Notes under the pieces: model-generated
Databases searched by the model: none
Told to the model about the DNA's origin: nothing
Seen by the model: only the letters and a program-made list of their open reading frames with translations
Program-made: the position numbers and the translations under genes
Origin: Gemmatimonadota bacterium
GTDB taxonomy: Bacteria > ARS69
Reading direction: 5' to 3'
DNA: 28,934 bases
Assembly (NCBI GenBank): GCA_020431545.1
Contig: JAGQIB010000222.1
Coordinates: forward strand, 1-28,934
Shown: positions 21,964 through 28,934 of the stretch, in pieces
Numbering within the stretch: the first letter of the stretch is position 1
Layout of the letters: each line of letters opens with the position of its first letter

Positions 21964-22079
21964 GCGGATCCCGGGGCCGCGGAGGAAGAGGACCGCCCGC
22001 CGCCCGCAGGCGCATCGCGAAGAGAATACCCCAGGGCGCGCGGCTGCGGGAAGAGACCCTGGCTGCTTGTGAGGAACGC

Positions 22080-22250
22080 TCACTGTCGGTTGCAGCGGTC
22101 CCCGGTGGCGTCCCCGGGCGAGACCCGCGAACAGCCGCATCCGGAAGAACCGGTCGTCGAGACGGGGCTTCCGGCCGCCCGGAGACGAAGCCATCCCCAG
22201 ATCCCGGTGGCCACTCCGAGGCCCAGCACCACGACGACGTCCGTCCACAT
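22080..22250 (-). CDS. Small (56 aa) single-TM protein with a Cys-containing tail, last gene of the rnf operon
   Basis: MWTDVVVVLGLGVATGIWGWLRLRAAGSPVSTTGSSGCGCSRVSPGDATGDRCNRQ. ATG is 2 nt after the rnfA stop; hydrophobic N-terminus followed by RLR. Confidence 0.6.
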   Translation of the reverse strand: MWTDVVVVLGLGVATGIWGWLRLRAAGSPVSTTGSSGCGCSRVSPGDATGDRCNRQ

Positions 22251-22252
22251 GA

Positions 22253-22834
22253 CTAGCCCGCCCCGAGCAGGCCGGCGAAGCCCATGAACGCGAGCGACAG
22301 GATGCCGGCGATGAGCAGCTGGATCGCGGTGCCCCGCGCCGCGGCCGGAACGTCCGACAGCTCCACCTCGACCCGGATGCCGGCCATCAGAACCAGCGCC
22401 AGCGTCAGGCCGGCCCCGGCGCCGATCGCGAACACGATTCCCTCGAGGAATCCGTAGCCGCGGTTCGTCTGGAACAGGGCGAGACCGAGGATCGCGCAGT
22501 TCGTGGTGATGAGCGGCAGGAAGATCCCGAGCGCGCGGAACAGTGCGGGCGAGAGCTTCTTGATCGCCATCTCCACGAACTGCACCACGCTCGCGATCAC
22601 GAGGATGAAGCTGATCAGCTTCAGGTACGGGGCGTACGGGAGGATGAACCGGTCGAGCGCCCACGCGCACGCCGACGTGATCACCAGGACGAAGATGTTC
22701 GCGAGCCCGAGACGAAACGCCGTATCGAGACGCCCGGACACACCGAAGAAGGGACACAGCCCGAGGAAATACGACAGCGTGAAGTTGTTCACCACCATCG
22801 CGCCCAGGAAGATCCAGAGGAGATGCCCGCTCAT
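22253..22834 (-). CDS. rnfA: Rnf electron transport complex subunit A
   Basis: NNFTLSYFLGLCPFFG, VIASVVQFVEM and LGIFLPLITTNCAILG, with both conserved Cys. ATGA overlap with rnfE. 193 aa. Confidence 0.96.
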   Translation of the reverse strand: MSGHLLWIFLGAMVVNNFTLSYFLGLCPFFGVSGRLDTAFRLGLANIFVLVITSACAWALDRFILPYAPYLKLISFILVIASVVQFVEMAIKKLSPALFRALGIFLPLITTNCAILGLALFQTNRGYGFLEGIVFAIGAGAGLTLALVLMAGIRVEVELSDVPAAARGTAIQLLIAGILSLAFMGFAGLLGAG

Positions 22835-23487
22835 GCGGCCGCCTTTCGCAGGGGCTCGACCGCGGCGGCCTTCGCCCGGGCCGCCGCGCGTGCCTTCCAG
22901 GCGCCGAACACGAGCAGGATCGCGCCGAGCATGAGAAACCCGCCGGGGGGCAGGATCATCACGACCCAGGGCTCGAAGTTCGGACCGAACAGCGACACGC
23001 CGAACAGCGTGCCGTTGCCGAGGATCTCCCGCGTGGCGCCCAGCAGGAACAGTGCGAACGTGAACCCCGCGCCCATGCCCACCGCGTCCGCCACCGCGAG
23101 GCGGATTCCGTGCCGCGACGCGAACGCCTCCTGCCGGCCGAGGATCACGCAGTTCACGACGATGAGCGAGATGAACGCGCCGAGCTCCTTGTGGATGCCC
23201 GGCACGAACGCCTGCAGGACGAGATCGGCGATCGTCACGAACGTCGCGATGATCACGATGTAGGTGGAGATGCGGACCGGCTTCGGGATCACCTTCCGCA
23301 GGCTGGAGACGAGGAAGCTCGAGCCCACGAGCACGAAGAACGTCGCCACGCCCATCGCGAGCGCATTCGGGGCCGTGTTCGTGACCGCAAGCGACGGGCA
23401 CATCCCGAGCACCTGCACGAGGACGGGATTCTCGCGCCACAGCCCCTTGAGGAGCTCCTCCCGCACCGAGAGCTCACGCGCCTTCAA
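22831..23487 (-). CDS. rnfE: Rnf electron transport complex subunit E
   Basis: GLWRENPVLVQVLGMCPSLAVT and LGAFISLIVVNCVILGRQEAFA. TTG start with GGAGAG RBS and a TTGA overlap with rnfG. 218 aa. Confidence 0.95.
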   Translation of the reverse strand: MKARELSVREELLKGLWRENPVLVQVLGMCPSLAVTNTAPNALAMGVATFFVLVGSSFLVSSLRKVIPKPVRISTYIVIIATFVTIADLVLQAFVPGIHKELGAFISLIVVNCVILGRQEAFASRHGIRLAVADAVGMGAGFTFALFLLGATREILGNGTLFGVSLFGPNFEPWVVMILPPGGFLMLGAILLVFGAWKARAAARAKAAAVEPLRKAAA

Positions 23488-24143
23488 GACGCACTCTCCA
23501 GGCGCGACGCCCAGGTGCGCGCCACGGCGTCGAGGACCTTCACCACGGCGCGCGAGGAGATCGTCGCCCCGGTGATGGCGTCGACCTGATTCGGCGCCGT
23601 CTTCTCTCCGCGCTTCACGAGCACGACCTCCGGATCGATTGCAAGCGCCTCGAAGTTCGCCGCGAACTGGGCATCCTTCGCGATCTTGTCGCCGAGGCCG
23701 GGAGTCTCCCGGCTCTCCAGGACCTTGACCCCCACGATCCGTCGCCCCGCGGGCTCGTAGCCCACAAGCAGGCGAATCGTGTCCTGGAATCCCGCGCCCT
23801 CCGCGGGAATCGCGTAGCCGAGCAGCGTGCCGGCGTCGTCGCGGGCGGCGAACACCTCGGCCGGCGGCGCGCCGCTCGCGTTCGTCCCCGGTTCCGCCGC
23901 GGCCACGAGGCGGTCGCCTTGCCACGCGAACGGTTCGAGCTTCGTGGATCCGGGCACCACCAGGAACACCGCCTCGCGGAGCGCGCGCGCCTGGTTCGCC
24001 TGCACGATCGGCAACGTGGCGTCGTACGTCGCCACGAGCCCGGCGCCGGACAGCACGCCGGCCACGACCAGAGTGGCGACGAGCTTCAGCGAGCCGGGTT
24101 CCCGGGTCGGTCCGGGCACGATCACGCTCGAGCCGGTGCTCAT
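23484..24143 (-). CDS. rnfG: Rnf electron transport complex subunit G
   Basis: N-terminal TM anchor, GFQDTIRLLVG, ETPGLGDKI and the covalent FMN motif DAITGATISS. ATGA overlap with rnfD. 219 aa. Confidence 0.95.
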   Translation of the reverse strand: MSTGSSVIVPGPTREPGSLKLVATLVVAGVLSGAGLVATYDATLPIVQANQARALREAVFLVVPGSTKLEPFAWQGDRLVAAAEPGTNASGAPPAEVFAARDDAGTLLGYAIPAEGAGFQDTIRLLVGYEPAGRRIVGVKVLESRETPGLGDKIAKDAQFAANFEALAIDPEVVLVKRGEKTAPNQVDAITGATISSRAVVKVLDAVARTWASRLESAS

Positions 24144-25180
24144 GCCGCCCTCCCCCGTCCGAACGGCCGCGGCTGCGTCCATCGATCCACGTGCGGCACC
24201 ATCGCGTTCATCAGCAGGATCGCGTACATCACGCCTTCCGGCAGGCCGCCGAACAGCCGGATCAGCACCACGAGCACTCCGATCCCCGCGCCGAACACCC
24301 ACGCCCCGCGCGGCGTCACCGGCGACGTGACGGGATCCGTCGCCATGAACACGGCGCCGAGGAGCAATCCGCCGGAGAACAGCAGGAACAGCGTCGACGG
24401 ACAGCGCGCCGGCAGCAGCACGTGCAGCAACCCGCCGAACGCCGCCACCGCGAGCAGGATCGCGAGCGGGATCCGCCAGTCGAACAGTCGTCGGACCGCC
24501 ATCACGATACCGAGCAGGAGCAGCAGTCCGGCACTCGTCTCGCCGAGCGATCCCGCCGTGTGTCCGCTCAGAAGAGACGGCACCGCGGTGGTCACGCCCT
24601 GGAACTTCGCGAGCGAGAGCGGCGTCGCGGCGGTCACGGAGTCCACGCCCGCGCGGGAAAGGAAGGGGAACGCGAAGTTCGTCGCGCGCCAGGCGAGCCA
24701 CGGCGCGGCTTCGCCGGCCGGAGGCGACCAGGTGGTGAGCACGGTGGGAAACGCGGCCTGCAGAAACGCGCGGCCCACCAGAGCGGGATTGAAGACGTTC
24801 TGCCCGAGCCCCCCGAAGACCGTCTTCCCGAGCGCGATCGCGACGGCGCCGCCGAGGACGGCCATCCACAGCGGAATCGCCGGGGGCAACGTGAGCCCGA
24901 GCAGTAGTCCCGTGAGCGGCGCGCTTCCGTCGCGGAACGCGGCGACGAACCCGCGCCGGCCGCCGAACGCCCACTCCGCGAGTACGGACCCGAGCGTGGA
25001 CGCCGCGAGCACGAGCAGCGCCGACGGGCCGAAGAACACGACCGCCGCCGCGACGACCGGTACGAGCGCGATCAGCACCTCGGTCATGAGGCGCGGCGTG
25101 GTCAGGGAACGCGAGACGTACGGCGCCGCCCGGAGGATCAGCGAGTCGGGTTCGTGCTCGCGCGAGGCCAGATCGCTCAC
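24140..25180 (-). CDS. rnfD: Rnf electron transport complex subunit D
   Basis: LGKTVFGGLGQNVFNPALVGRAFL, FMN site DSVTAATPL, GSLGETS, FMATDPVTSP and EGVMYAILLMN. GTG start overlaps the rnfC stop. 346 aa. Confidence 0.96.
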   Translation of the reverse strand: MSDLASREHEPDSLILRAAPYVSRSLTTPRLMTEVLIALVPVVAAAVVFFGPSALLVLAASTLGSVLAEWAFGGRRGFVAAFRDGSAPLTGLLLGLTLPPAIPLWMAVLGGAVAIALGKTVFGGLGQNVFNPALVGRAFLQAAFPTVLTTWSPPAGEAAPWLAWRATNFAFPFLSRAGVDSVTAATPLSLAKFQGVTTAVPSLLSGHTAGSLGETSAGLLLLLGIVMAVRRLFDWRIPLAILLAVAAFGGLLHVLLPARCPSTLFLLFSGGLLLGAVFMATDPVTSPVTPRGAWVFGAGIGVLVVLIRLFGGLPEGVMYAILLMNAMVPHVDRWTQPRPFGRGRAA

Positions 25181-26514
25181 TTCGTGCCCTTTCCGTGCTT
25201 GCGGATCTCGGACTTCGCCACGCGGATCAGCTGCACGATCGGGATGTTCGACGGGCAGGACCACGAGCACGCGCCGCACTCCATGCAGTCCATCGCGAAG
25301 GCACGATCCATGTCGTCGAACCGGCCGGCGCGCGCCAGCCGCGCGAGACGCGACGGATTCAGGAAGTTCGAGCACGCCTCCAGACACCGCCCGCACTTCA
25401 GGCAGGCGTATTCCGTCGGTCGCGCCGCGCGCGCCTCCGTGAACGCGAGGATCCCGGACGTTCCCTTGAGCACCGGAACGTCCAGGGTGGCGAGCGGTTG
25501 CCCCATCATCGGGCCGCCGAGCACGACCTCCCGCGCCTCGGGCAACAGGCCGCCGCAGTGGTGCAGGATGTCCCGCACCGACGTGCCGATCGGCACGACG
25601 AGGTTCGCCGGCTCGCGCACGCCCGGTCCCGACACCGTGAGCCAGCGCTCGATCAGGGGAACGCCCCGGTCGAACCAGTCCGCGAGCGCCGCCATCGTCT
25701 GCACGTTGTTCACGAGGACGCCGAGGTCGAGCGGCAGCTTTCCGGCCGGCACCTCTTCGCGCCACAGCGCACGGATGAGCATCTTCTCGGCGCCCTGGGG
25801 ATACTTCACGTCGAGCGGCACCACGTCGACGGTCGGACCGTCCGTGGAGCCCGCCGCCTCCTTCGCCGCCCGTTCGAGCGCCGCGATGCCGTCCGGCTTG
25901 TTCGCCTCCACTCCCACCACGATCTCGCGCACGCCGAGCTTCGCGCCGAGGATCATCGCCCCGCGCACGACCGCCTCGGGTCGCTCGACCATGAGACGGT
26001 GATCGCACGTGAGATACGGCTCGCACTCGCAGCCGTTCACGGCGAGCCGTTCGAGCCTGCGCCCCTCCGGCACCTTGTACTTCACGTGCGAGGGGAACGC
26101 GGCGCCGCCGAGCCCCACGATGCCTGCGCGCTGCACCTGCGCCACGAACTCCTCGAGCGGCATCGCCGCCCAGTCGAGCGGGTCCCGGGACGGGAGTCGC
26201 TGCGGCGACCACGGGTCGGCCGCGATCTCGATCGCGTCGACCAGGGCGCCGGAGGGATGCCGGCGACGTTCCACCGCGGTCACCGTGCCCGCAACCGGCG
26301 CGCACAGTGTGGTGGAGACGAACCCGTCCGGCTCTGCGACCGGATCCCCGCGCTCGACGCGCACGCCCGCGGTCACGATCGCCTTGGACGGCCGGCCCCC
26401 GTGCTGCGCGAGCGGGAGCACGTAGTGCGAGACGAACGGCAGCCGACGGGTCGGCGAGTCGGCCGTCGCGTCCTTGTGCTCCGCGGGATGGACTCCGTGC
26501 TGGAACGTCTTCAT
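25177..26514 (-). CDS. rnfC: Rnf electron transport complex subunit C
   Basis: ATG 26514 (MKTFQHGVHPAEHK). AGIVGLGGAAFPSHVK, VNGCECEPYLTCD, YPQGAEK, GGPMMG, and two 4Fe-4S motifs (CLKCGRCLEACS, CMECGACSWSCP). 445 aa. Confidence 0.97.
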   Translation of the reverse strand: MKTFQHGVHPAEHKDATADSPTRRLPFVSHYVLPLAQHGGRPSKAIVTAGVRVERGDPVAEPDGFVSTTLCAPVAGTVTAVERRRHPSGALVDAIEIAADPWSPQRLPSRDPLDWAAMPLEEFVAQVQRAGIVGLGGAAFPSHVKYKVPEGRRLERLAVNGCECEPYLTCDHRLMVERPEAVVRGAMILGAKLGVREIVVGVEANKPDGIAALERAAKEAAGSTDGPTVDVVPLDVKYPQGAEKMLIRALWREEVPAGKLPLDLGVLVNNVQTMAALADWFDRGVPLIERWLTVSGPGVREPANLVVPIGTSVRDILHHCGGLLPEAREVVLGGPMMGQPLATLDVPVLKGTSGILAFTEARAARPTEYACLKCGRCLEACSNFLNPSRLARLARAGRFDDMDRAFAMDCMECGACSWSCPSNIPIVQLIRVAKSEIRKHGKGTK

Positions 26515-28934
26515 GCGTCGTCCTCGGAATCCGGACCGGCGAGCGCCATCAGCCGACGTTCCAGCCGCTCGACGAGCGCGGACTCCGTGTCGTGCGTGGC
26601 GGCATCCAGCGCGGTCGAGCGTTCGGCCACCGCGCGCCGACGCTCTTCGTCGCGGGCCTCGTCGCGCGCGCGCTCGATCGCGGGCCCGGCGCTGCCGGCG
26701 AGCAGCAGCAGGACGTCGCGGGTCGACGACGCGGGGCCGTCCCGCAGCGTGATCGTGCCGAGCGGCGCCCGCTCGGACGGGCTCGCCAGGAACGGCACGA
26801 ACTCCCCGGCATCGCGCCGCTGCCGGATCCGCTCCAGCGCGGCGGCCGCCTCTCCGTCCGGCCGCGGCGCGAACACGCGGACGAGGAGCGGGCCACCCTT
26901 CGTTGCCGCGTCGCGAATCGCGCGCACGAGCGGATCCGGATCCGCCACCGTGTCCTGCACCACGAACGCGTCGCGACCGGCCGCCGCGAGCAGCGCCAGC
27001 TCGCTCCGCCCCGCGTCGCCCCCGGCGCTCCCCGCCGTCACGATCACCGCGAGCGGCAAGCGTCGCGCGAGCAACGACTCGACTGCGCCGCCGCGACGCT
27101 CCGTCCACGACTCGTCGTCCAGGAGCAGCACCACCCGCGGCGCCAGCGCTTGTTCCTCGAGCCGCAGGTCCTCGAACCGGGCCGGCAGATCCGGCGGGTC
27201 GGGCGCGGCCGATCCCGTGAGCGCGTGCTCCACGCGACGGATTGCGCGGGCGTTCTCCACGGTCTCGCGCGCGATCTCGTCGAGCAGCCCGGACGCGGTC
27301 GCGATCCCGGCGCCGTCCAGATCCACGATCGCGGGGCCGGGGAACGGTTGCGCCGGGAACGTCGCGATCCACTCCGCGAGGTCGCGGTCCGCCACGACGA
27401 CGTAGGTGCGGCGGCCCGGTCCGGTCGCGCGCGCGAGGCGTTCGTCGAGATCCACGACGGACTTCGCGCGATCCACCACGCGCGCGAGGCGCTCGGCGTT
27501 CACCGGTCCGGTCTCCACGGCTTCCTCGAGCCGCGACACGAGCGCCGCGACGTCCACGTCGCGGCCGCCGAGCGACTCCAGACCCCGGGAGATCGCCTCC
27601 AGGTCTCCGGTCGGCACGACGTCGAGCATCGCGTGCCGGATCGACTTGGCGGCGCGCTCGCGCACCGCGCGGACCCGCGCCCGCGCATCGACGTCGCGTT
27701 GCGCCTGCGCCGCGCTCAGCGCGCCGAGCGCGAGACGCAGGCCCAGGCGCGCCGGCGAGCCCGCCGGAGCGGCGTCGCCGGGACCGAGCGCGTGACGCGC
27801 TTCCGGATCGAGCCACGTGGCCGCCGCGACGCCCACGTCGTCCCGTGCCGCGAGGCGCTCCCGGATTGCCGCATCCGTCGGAGCCATCGCGAGCGCGAGA
27901 TCGGTCCGCGCGCGCAGGGCGCCGGCCGACTCCGCTGTGGCCTCCTCGAGTCGAAGCGCCTCGGGCTCGCACTCCGTCGCGCAGATCCCGCAACCCGTGC
28001 AAGCATCCGGATCCACGACGATCGAGGCGATGTTCCCCTCCAGCGCCTCCGGCCGCGCGACCGGGAGCGCTCCGACCGCCGCGCCGACGGCCGCGACCGC
28101 AGCCGCGACGTTCGCCCGACGTTCGTCCGGCACCGAGCCCTCGATCGCCCGGAACGCCTGCTCCAGCGCGTCGTCGAACGTGGCCGGGGCATCCGCCGCC
28201 GCGAGCCGCGCTTCGACCTCGCGCGCGAGCTTCGAAGAAACGGAACGGAGTACGTCGACCGATCCGCCCTGCTCGCGCGCGAGGCGCATTCCCTCGTTCA
28301 GGAGGCCGGCCGCTCCGTGGACCACCGGTTCGATCGCTCCGTGCGGGCAGCTCACCCAGCAACGACCGCAGCCCGTGCAGGCAGCGGGATCGAACGCCGG
28401 CAGCTGACCGGAGACGTTCGCGACCGGCCGCAACGCGCCCGCCCCCGCCGGCAGCGCGGCGAGCGCGAGCAACGGATCCGGCGCGAGCGCCGCGGCGCGG
28501 CCTTCGCTCCACGGGCGAACGAATCCGTCCCAGGCGCTCGGCAACGACGACCAGGGCGCGGCGTTCTCGGGAACTCGACGGGCCCGGGCCGGTGGCACCA
28601 GGACGTCTCCGGGGGCACGATCGGAGACGCGGTCGGCGCGTACACCGTGGCGCTCCGCGCCCGGAAACGCCCGTCGCAGCTCTTCCCGGATCGCGGCCCG
28701 CTTCGGATCCGAGCGCAGGTCCGGCGCGAAGTCCGCGCCGACCCAGACCGGACCGGTGCGATCGTCGAACGTCCGGGCGAGCTCGAGCAGATCTTCCTCC
28801 AGCACTTCGGCCCCGCCGAAGCCCGCGATCGCGGAGATGAGGCGGCCGCCTACTCCCGCGGCGCGCACTTCGGCCGTCAGTCGGGGCTCGGACGCGAGCC
28901 AGGCGTTCGCGCGCTCGAGCACGAGGACGTCGCG
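26511..28934 (-). CDS. Degenerate pyruvate:ferredoxin oxidoreductase-like protein with two 4Fe-4S motifs (5' end lies beyond the window)
   Basis: Frame is open to the window edge (...RDVLVLERANAWL). Ferredoxin motifs FDPAACTGCGRCWVSCPHGAI (28344-28379) and VDPDACTGCGICATECEP (27963-28001), preceded by the PFOR-like LPAGAGALRP segment. Later segments resemble the PFOR beta/TPP domain without its key residues. Stop overlaps the rnfC ATG (ATGA). Confidence 0.8.
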   Translation of the reverse strand, partial: RDVLVLERANAWLASEPRLTAEVRAAGVGGRLISAIAGFGGAEVLEEDLLELARTFDDRTGPVWVGADFAPDLRSDPKRAAIREELRRAFPGAERHGVRADRVSDRAPGDVLVPPARARRVPENAAPWSSLPSAWDGFVRPWSEGRAAALAPDPLLALAALPAGAGALRPVANVSGQLPAFDPAACTGCGRCWVSCPHGAIEPVVHGAAGLLNEGMRLAREQGGSVDVLRSVSSKLAREVEARLAAADAPATFDDALEQAFRAIEGSVPDERRANVAAAVAAVGAAVGALPVARPEALEGNIASIVVDPDACTGCGICATECEPEALRLEEATAESAGALRARTDLALAMAPTDAAIRERLAARDDVGVAAATWLDPEARHALGPGDAAPAGSPARLGLRLALGALSAAQAQRDVDARARVRAVRERAAKSIRHAMLDVVPTGDLEAISRGLESLGGRDVDVAALVSRLEEAVETGPVNAERLARVVDRAKSVVDLDERLARATGPGRRTYVVVADRDLAEWIATFPAQPFPGPAIVDLDGAGIATASGLLDEIARETVENARAIRRVEHALTGSAAPDPPDLPARFEDLRLEEQALAPRVVLLLDDESWTERRGGAVESLLARRLPLAVIVTAGSAGGDAGRSELALLAAAGRDAFVVQDTVADPDPLVRAIRDAATKGGPLLVRVFAPRPDGEAAAALERIRQRRDAGEFVPFLASPSERAPLGTITLRDGPASSTRDVLLLLAGSAGPAIERARDEARDEERRRAVAERSTALDAATHDTESALVERLERRLMALAGPDSEDDA

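Follow-up and report, generated by a model that had tools for sequence, protein, structure and literature searches.

The stretch analyzed here, the window, comprises 28,934 nucleotides and is the entire contig C168 (JAGQIB010000222.1) of a 68%-complete metagenome-assembled genome (MAG; G000) of a Gemmatimonadota bacterium. On its minus strand, a frame open for 807 codons (26511..28934) is cut at its 5' end by the contig end and terminates in a TGA stop at 26513-26511. This stop shares an ATGA (26511..26514) with the rnfC start codon at 26514-26512, as read directly from the bases (GCA-TGA, and ATG-AAG-ACG in the rnfC frame). The same strand carries rnfC (25177..26514; TIGR01945, E 1e-141, with RnfC_N, Complex1_51K, and SLBB domains), rnfD (24140..25180; PF03116, E 5e-100), rnfG (23484..24143; FMN_bind, E 3e-18), and two Rnf-Nqr membrane subunit genes, one rnfE-like (22831..23487; PF02508, E 1e-62) and one rnfA-like (22253..22834; PF02508, E 5e-53). 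An earlier reading of the DNA from its letters alone (the sequence-only reading) had singled out an open reading frame of more than 800 amino acids that overlaps the rnfC start, carries two 4Fe-4S motifs, and encodes an apparently catalytically dead paralog of pyruvate:ferredoxin oxidoreductase (PFOR). The reading frame and its overlap are as described there. We find that the product, which we call pseudo-PFOR, is a non-catalytic, Rnf-embedded PFOR derivative within an undescribed 10-gene module that combines a 2-oxoacid:ferredoxin oxidoreductase (OFOR) with Rnf. To judge by a full-length ortholog of 1,122 amino acids, the reading frame in the window represents the C-terminal, larger part of a protein of approximately 1,120 amino acids.

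Pfam detects only two 4Fe-4S motifs in the window protein, plus a sub-threshold PFOR_II match at its extreme N terminus, and its TIGR02176 score of 25.5 bits lies far below the curated cut-off of 911.35. Seventeen homologs of 1,050 to 1,412 amino acids carry POR_N, PFOR_II, and two Fer4 motifs, and neither TPP_enzyme_C nor the gamma domain was found in any of them. A profile of the family matched the Moorella thermoacetica PFOR (6cin) in the PDB at E 7e-54, in separate blocks that cover domains I+II, domains IV/V, and the C-terminal half of domain VI. The AlphaFold2 (AF2) model of the window protein (predicted local distance difference test score [pLDDT], 78; predicted template modeling score [pTM], 0.73) retrieved PFOR in Foldseek at E 2e-10, and VIA-align placed model residues 1-740 on PFOR residues 320-1165 with a Z of about 31. 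Residues 362-765 matched the complete beta subunits of oxalate oxidoreductase and archaeal PFOR (PorB) with a Z of 17.6, indicating that the C-terminal 470 residues retain the fold that binds thiamine pyrophosphate (TPP), the PP fold. The PFOR domain folds thus occur in PFOR order (I, II, V, and VI), and the descent proposed by the sequence-only reading is upheld by both profile and fold.

The residues encoded in the window can be assigned to these domains along the minus strand. Residues 1-60 (28755..28934) form the tail of domain II, in keeping with the sub-threshold PFOR_II match (residues 2-47), the complete POR_N and PFOR_II domains of the homologs, and the start of the model alignment at PFOR residue ~320. 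A linker of 115 residues (residues 61-175; 28410..28754) occupies the site of PFOR domains III and IV; it is modeled at low pLDDT, and its P-K-R and proline positions are conserved. Domain V (27930..28409; pLDDT above 90) holds two CxxCxxCxxxC motifs at residues 186-196 (28344-28379) and 312-322 (27963-28001), with a helical insert of ~100 amino acids between them. Their spacing of 116 residues in Pfam agrees with the approximately 115 given by the sequence-only reading. Next comes domain VI (26700..27929), which is degenerate, has the PP fold, and contains a helical insert; this assignment is supported by the motif alignment, by the beta subunit match of the model, and by a HMMER match to 6cin residues 973-1164. 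The protein ends in a long C-terminal helix (residues 746-807; 26514..26699) that is also found in the P0019 family and the long PFORs described below.

We aligned (MAFFT) the window protein, its full-length ortholog, and fifteen other family members (17 dead sequences in all) with six intact long Rnf-linked PFORs and with P0021, a bona fide PFOR (1,742 bits on TIGR02176) encoded in a related genome. P0021 and the six long PFORs retain the domain I Glu, T-F-T-A-S-Q-G-L, CxxC, C840, C1071, GDG, and the Mg loop D-T-x-V-Y-S-N-T-G-G-Q. All 17 dead sequences are substituted at the positions of Glu64, TFTASQGL, CxxC, C840, GDG, and C1071, and the DT..YSNTGGQ loop is deleted from each. The stretches that the sequence-only reading had picked out by eye fall close to its coordinates and on the sites to which it had assigned them. 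The one at residues 386-401 (27732-27779) lies on the former CxxC loop of the proximal cluster, whose four Cys positions are all non-Cys (the window protein reads A-P-A-G-S, D-R-D, and P-R-P), and the one at residues 603-622 (27069-27128) lies on the former GDG motif, where the window protein reads L-D-D-E-S. Its suspected relic of P-F-N-P-Y-P-x-P-W, a P-A-Q-P-F-P-G-P stretch at the former C840 segment (PFNPYPFPW; residues 527-539; 27318-27356), aligns with Y-P-F-N-P-Y-P-F-P-W of the long PFORs. The deletion point of the Mg loop follows 27030-27053, and the former C1071 site lies at 26850-26876. The catalytic Glu and T-F-T-A-S-Q-G-L are lost in the full-length ortholog (P0020; 94.8% identity) and the remaining dead members, the corresponding N terminus of the window protein itself falling in an assembly gap. 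Domain III (gamma, PF01558) had likewise been read as deleted, and no match to it was found in the window protein or its homologs, which have at this site only the low-confidence but conserved linker. We found no intact TPP or proximal-cluster ligands elsewhere in the protein: all catalytic determinants that could be checked are gone. Pseudo-PFOR is predicted to bind neither TPP nor Mg and to carry no proximal [4Fe-4S] cluster, and it lacks the catalytic Glu, as read from the ortholog, and domain III.

The ligands of domain V have had the opposite fate. C186, C189, C192, C196, C312, C315, C318, and C322 are invariant in the family, and these eight Cys are kept in every aligned sequence, dead or intact. 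The former cluster loop has itself become a conserved motif, G-D-G-A-E-P-G-S-G-x-R-L-A-x-R, in which G392 and R400 are invariant. An exhaustive profile search returned 5,177 proteins at E<1e-3; at E<1e-30, it returned at least 801 representative clusters (50% identity). None of the 150 best representatives has the TPP or cluster-A motifs, and each carries exactly two Fer4 motifs.

A same-genus genome that is 98% complete (G001) encodes P0020, the gapless 1,122-amino-acid ortholog, and allows selection on pseudo-PFOR to be measured. Nei-Gojobori dN/dS against this genome is 0.144 for pseudo-PFOR, compared with 0.051 for rnfC, 0.021 for rnfB, and 0.079 for P0019, and varies along pseudo-PFOR, with its minimum (0.02) in the linker and its maximum (0.23) in the core of the dead domain VI. 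Pseudo-PFOR is under purifying selection. Contigs from three activated-sludge/wastewater metatranscriptome libraries contain fragments of pseudo-PFOR and the rnf genes at 93-97% identity, which is compatible with expression in close relatives without proving it and is silent on cotranscription. Across 22000-28934 of the window, the organism or its close relatives (93-100% identity) were seen in activated-sludge/wastewater metagenomes and in metatranscriptome-library contigs.

The missing upstream part of the operon lies on another contig of the same genome, C79. This contig ends with the first 26 codons of pseudo-PFOR, whose GTG start overlaps the stop codon of rnfB (GTG...TGA). As rnfB (278 amino acids) lies directly 5' of it on this neighboring contig, pseudo-PFOR is located between rnfB and rnfC. 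The operon rebuilt from C79 and C168 reads OFORa-OFORb-P0019-rnfB-pseudoPFOR-rnfCDGEA. Its OFOR is an intact two-subunit enzyme that comprises an alpha/gamma fusion with POR_N and PFOR_II and a beta subunit in which the CxxC, G-C-S-S, GDG, N-N, and C-P motifs are all present. The beta subunit has no delta domain and belongs to the single-cluster type, and the enzyme has no ferredoxin domain; its closest solved structures are the Sulfolobus OFOR (5B48, E 4e-49) and the Magnetococcus 2-oxoglutarate:ferredoxin oxidoreductase (OGOR). The expectation that an active PFOR-like partner would be encoded nearby thus holds in part: an intact OFOR is found upstream, but it is an alpha/gamma plus beta enzyme and not a long PFOR. 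We rejected a long PFOR as the directly upstream partner, the upstream genes being rnfB, P0019, and the alpha-beta OFOR.

P0019 (838 amino acids; L013, G000:C79 2803-5319, plus strand) has a single-cluster ferredoxin domain at its C terminus (CxxCxxC...CP) and no other family assignment. Its sequence alone retrieved nothing useful from the PDB or NCBIfam, and its kinship emerged through profile-profile and fold searches. With hhalign, residues 92-707 of P0019 fall on the C-terminal half of the pseudo-PFOR family at 99% probability (E 3e-18), and its AF2 model (pLDDT 79) matches PFOR residues 691-1170 with a Z of about 20 and PorB with a Z of 17. No TPP or cluster-A motifs were seen in it by eye. 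P0019 is a second dead PFOR fragment, a domain VI derivative with a ferredoxin tail, and a part of the module; in loci of the dead type, it recurs 5' of rnfB.

To assess the taxonomic distribution of this arrangement, we considered metagenomic and genomic loci. Four metagenome/MAG loci have the core order P19-rnfB-pseudoPFOR-rnfC-rnfD in common, other rnf genes follow where the contig is long enough, and OFOR is upstream in two of the three that reach that far. A scan of GTDB species genomes yielded 80 loci, which we typed by tblastn with the window's own proteins and by motifs into 54 dead and 26 intact long loci. Gammaproteobacteria contribute 31 of the dead loci (Woeseiaceae, Chromatiales, Sedimenticolaceae, “Candidatus Thiosymbion,” and Thioploca) and Acidobacteriota contribute 9; the others belong to Myxococcota, Planctomycetota, Calditrichota, Krumholzibacteriota, Eisenbacteria, and others, for at least 10 phyla. 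Intact long loci occur in Hydrogenedentota, Gemmatimonadota, Rokubacteria, Planctomycetota, and Myxococcota. Where the flank suffices, rnfC follows the dead gene in 47/47 GTDB loci, rnfB precedes it in 43/44, and OFOR is upstream in 29/36. The linkage to rnfC is thereby conserved across genomes, as the sequence-only reading required, and pseudo-PFOR belongs to the rnf operon by its overlaps at both ends, with coupled start and stop codons, and by its conserved synteny.

Taken together, the loss of catalytic residues, a dN/dS of 0.144, at least 801 clusters, and a range of at least 10 phyla identify pseudo-PFOR as a predicted pseudoenzyme kept by selection. The opposite view, of a pseudogene in decay or a duplicated PFOR whose remnant has no function, would account for the loss of every catalytic motif and has an almost negligible likelihood, given the intact frame, the dN/dS, the number of clusters below E 1e-30, the synteny in so many phyla, and the fragments from relatives in metatranscriptome-library contigs. 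We reject neutral decay on dN/dS and conservation, in agreement with what the sequence-only reading had supposed.

The nearest relatives of the dead form are PFORs of 1,650 to 1,750 amino acids that possess all catalytic residues, domain III, and a ferredoxin tail on the same polypeptide. These long PFORs also lie between rnfB and rnfC (e.g., P0022 in G001, and L074, L088, L096, and L113), often with OFOR upstream. The second rnf operon of G001 (L029, G001:C2 1995-12126, minus strand) contains rnfB2, an apparently intact long PFOR of 1,792 amino acids (domains I, II, III, V, and VI plus ferredoxin tail), and rnfC2-D2-G2-E2, showing that intact and dead PFOR-Rnf modules coexist in one genome. 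Contigs C113, C281, and C594 of the window's own genome contain fragments of this long PFOR gene. In a FastTree phylogeny of the C-terminal halves, which is provisional in being rooted on a single canonical PFOR and in having some long branches, the dead clade (51 sequences, support 100) is sister to the P19 clade (29 sequences, support 100), the two being joined at support 98, and the long PFORs form a clade of 26 (support 81). Pseudo-PFOR probably descends from a long PFOR embedded in an rnf operon. The tree further suggests that the dead architecture arose once and that, of two copies of the C-terminal half produced by a duplication, one retained the ferredoxin tail and became P0019.

Several members of the long clade depart from this pattern. 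L087, L094, and L099 lack some or all TPP and cluster-A motifs, which could reflect independent degeneration or an assembly or frame problem. Two “delta proteobacterium” MAGs (L106 and L109) encode intact long PFORs with no rnfB or rnfC within 8 kb, indicating that the long form is not always linked to Rnf. In long-PFOR loci (L096 3853-4866 and L113 3788-4855), OFOR beta and rnfB are separated by a conserved hypothetical gene of ~340 amino acids. It is 38% identical between Rokubacteria and Deltaproteobacteria MAGs and weakly resembles the dead PP core of P19 (hhalign probability 79%, E 1.5e-5). We compared it with the DHO_dh-like gene that adjoins rnfB2 in G001, and the two are not the same.

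Rnf is described as a six-subunit pump that exchanges electrons with soluble ferredoxin, and PFOR and OFOR are described as soluble enzymes that need this ferredoxin. Lineage-specific redox partners encoded in rnf operons have precedent, such as the multihaem cytochrome of Methanosarcina. To our knowledge, no solved or reviewed Rnf complex includes a PFOR-like subunit. The RnfCDGEA + RnfB core is ordinary here, as in the Rnf complexes of known structure from Clostridium tetanomorphum (7ZC6), Acetobacterium woodii (9ERI), and Azotobacter vinelandii (8AHX). Pseudo-PFOR shares the domain order I-II-(III)-IV-V-VI, the folds, and the domain V Cys with homodimeric PFORs of the NifJ/YdbK type (Desulfovibrio africanus 1B0P and M. 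thermoacetica 6CIN; TIGR02176). It differs from them in lacking the GDG...N motif, the proximal Cys, the Glu, and domain III, and in having helical inserts in domains V and VI, the long C-terminal helix, and a location between rnfB and rnfC. The Rnf-embedded long PFORs have the same operon position, both helical inserts, the C-terminal helix, and the Y-P-F-N-P-Y-P-F-P-W counterpart of the P-A-Q-P-F-P-G-P stretch, but they keep TPP, Mg, Glu, cluster A, domain III, and their own ferredoxin tail, which in the dead lineage resides on the separate P0019. Compared with the two-subunit OFORs (Sulfolobus tokodaii 5B46/5B48 and Magnetococcus OGOR 6N2N), whose beta PP fold matches the dead domain VI with a Z of 11-12.6, the arrangement is reversed: these active enzymes bind TPP, have one cluster, and lack domain V, whereas pseudo-PFOR has the domain V clusters and neither TPP nor cluster A.

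Our searches of the open literature turned up no account of rnf operons that include a PFOR-like or dead PFOR gene. A 2025 review of Rnf/Nqr does not mention a PFOR-like subunit, a 2026 review of PFOR diversity does not mention an Rnf-embedded dead PFOR family, and NCBIfam has no model for the pseudo-PFOR family. Members are named “4Fe-4S binding protein,” “hypothetical protein,” or, misleadingly, “pyruvate-ferredoxin oxidoreductase” in their sources, and MAG-based metabolic reconstructions may consequently over-count PFOR. In a 2024 study of the Riftia symbiont, a “PFOR-like” gene falls in expression together with the dimeric korAB and was treated as a possible PFOR isoform (PMC11636981). That symbiont is a sulfur-oxidizing gammaproteobacterium in which the PFOR-like gene is coregulated with a two-subunit OGOR; this gene may correspond to the module described here. 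The dead module is carried by Sedimenticolaceae (L062).

Relative to the long form, only cluster A and TPP are missing from the dead form, which suggests that its electrons enter from elsewhere and that the adjacent OFOR is the obvious candidate. On balance, we consider it probable that pseudo-PFOR, together with P0019, is a non-catalytic Fe-S accessory subunit that wires the upstream OFOR to Rnf. It would be made in step with the Rnf subunits as a stoichiometric accessory subunit of the complex, its dead TPP domains serving as a scaffold and its domain V as a two-cluster wire. Pseudo-PFOR and P0019, the latter with its single-cluster ferredoxin tail, would then connect the two-subunit OFOR to RnfB. 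Electrons could pass between 2-oxoacid plus CoA, the OFOR cluster, the clusters of domain V and P0019, RnfB, RnfCDG, and NAD(H), coupled to ion translocation in either direction (oxidation or reductive carboxylation) with little or no reliance on soluble ferredoxin. The long form has the complete chain TPP-A-B-C-tail cluster within a single protein. A broader version of this model is possible, and we offer it tentatively: a widespread, undescribed OFOR-Rnf supercomplex in which pseudo-PFOR (two clusters) and P0019 (one cluster) would hard-wire a two-subunit OFOR to Rnf, permitting 2-oxoacid oxidation, or reductive carboxylation driven by NADH or membrane potential, without soluble low-potential ferredoxin, and in which a sister version would plug an intact long PFOR into Rnf.

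Several points weigh against the wiring of OFOR to Rnf. Docking, electron transfer, and independence from ferredoxin are features that we infer from how the genes are arranged and overlap and from the cysteines that are kept. In 7/36 dead loci, no upstream OFOR was found, and the link to OFOR is therefore not obligatory. Many intact long-PFOR loci also have an upstream OFOR, so its presence alone does not explain why PFOR catalysis became dispensable. Because the proximal cluster is missing, the domain V wire would face a dead pocket at its inner end, and the OFOR cluster would still have to come within electron-transfer distance. In addition, approximately 290 codons of the window's pseudo-PFOR fall in the assembly gap, its N-terminal third having been read from the 94.8%-identical ortholog in G001, and the tree that places the dead clade carries the caveats given above.

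An alternative is an OFOR-independent electron-entry module of Rnf, in which the clusters would extend the RnfB chain or provide a platform that docks soluble ferredoxin or flavodoxin, the dead TPP domains being only its structural body. Near-universal rnfB (43/44) and rnfC (47/47) next to a less regular OFOR (29/36) argue for such a module, as do the invariant domain V cysteines. We nonetheless regard it as unlikely, since most loci across phyla, that of the window's genome among them, have OFOR directly upstream, this OFOR has no ferredoxin domain of its own, and the co-conserved P0019 would be left unexplained. The replacement of the cluster loop by a different, strongly conserved motif suggests a retained functional surface or pocket and could point to a regulatory or sensor subunit, whose former TPP/substrate pocket would bind a metabolite (CoA, acyl-CoA, or a 2-oxoacid) and gate or tune the activity or direction of Rnf. 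With the Mg/diphosphate loop deleted outright and invariant clusters that favor electron transfer over sensing alone, this explanation appears improbable.

Purifying selection over the whole length and several family-specific invariant residues would also fit a neofunctionalized enzyme with a new, TPP-independent active site. No other catalytic family was matched, however, and all cofactor sites besides domain V are lost, making a new enzyme quite improbable. Membership in the operon would by itself be compatible with an assembly or maturation factor for the Fe-S centers of Rnf or OFOR that is not a stable subunit, and ApbE-type maturation genes occur near some such operons. A protein of 1,100 to 1,600 amino acids with two invariant clusters, coupled between two structural genes, would be an atypical chaperone, and we judge this role very improbable.

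That many phyla (Gammaproteobacteria including Thiosymbion symbionts, Acidobacteriota, Gemmatimonadota, Rokubacteria, and Planctomycetota) encode a PFOR-type protein, whether intact or dead, between rnfB and rnfC suggests a device for direct coupling between 2-oxoacids and Rnf. If OFOR is indeed wired to Rnf, models of energy conservation and of CO2 fixation or anaplerosis would change for the organisms that carry the module. Such wiring would be relevant to oxygen-exposed niches, provided that free reduced ferredoxin is a liability there, and pseudo-PFOR would clearly exemplify the conversion of a large redox enzyme into a structural, electron-wiring pseudo-subunit.

Other genes accompany the module at individual loci. 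ApbE genes are located downstream in L015 and L016. Small reading frames of 51 to 59 amino acids are called in L004 (17828-17983) and L016 (11154-11333 and 9676-9855); they directly follow rnfA, and L016 has one between rnfG and rnfE as well. A hemerythrin-domain gene lies immediately 5' of OFOR alpha in L004 (3668-4099) and L015 (3247-3720) and may accompany the module in a role related to O2 or redox.

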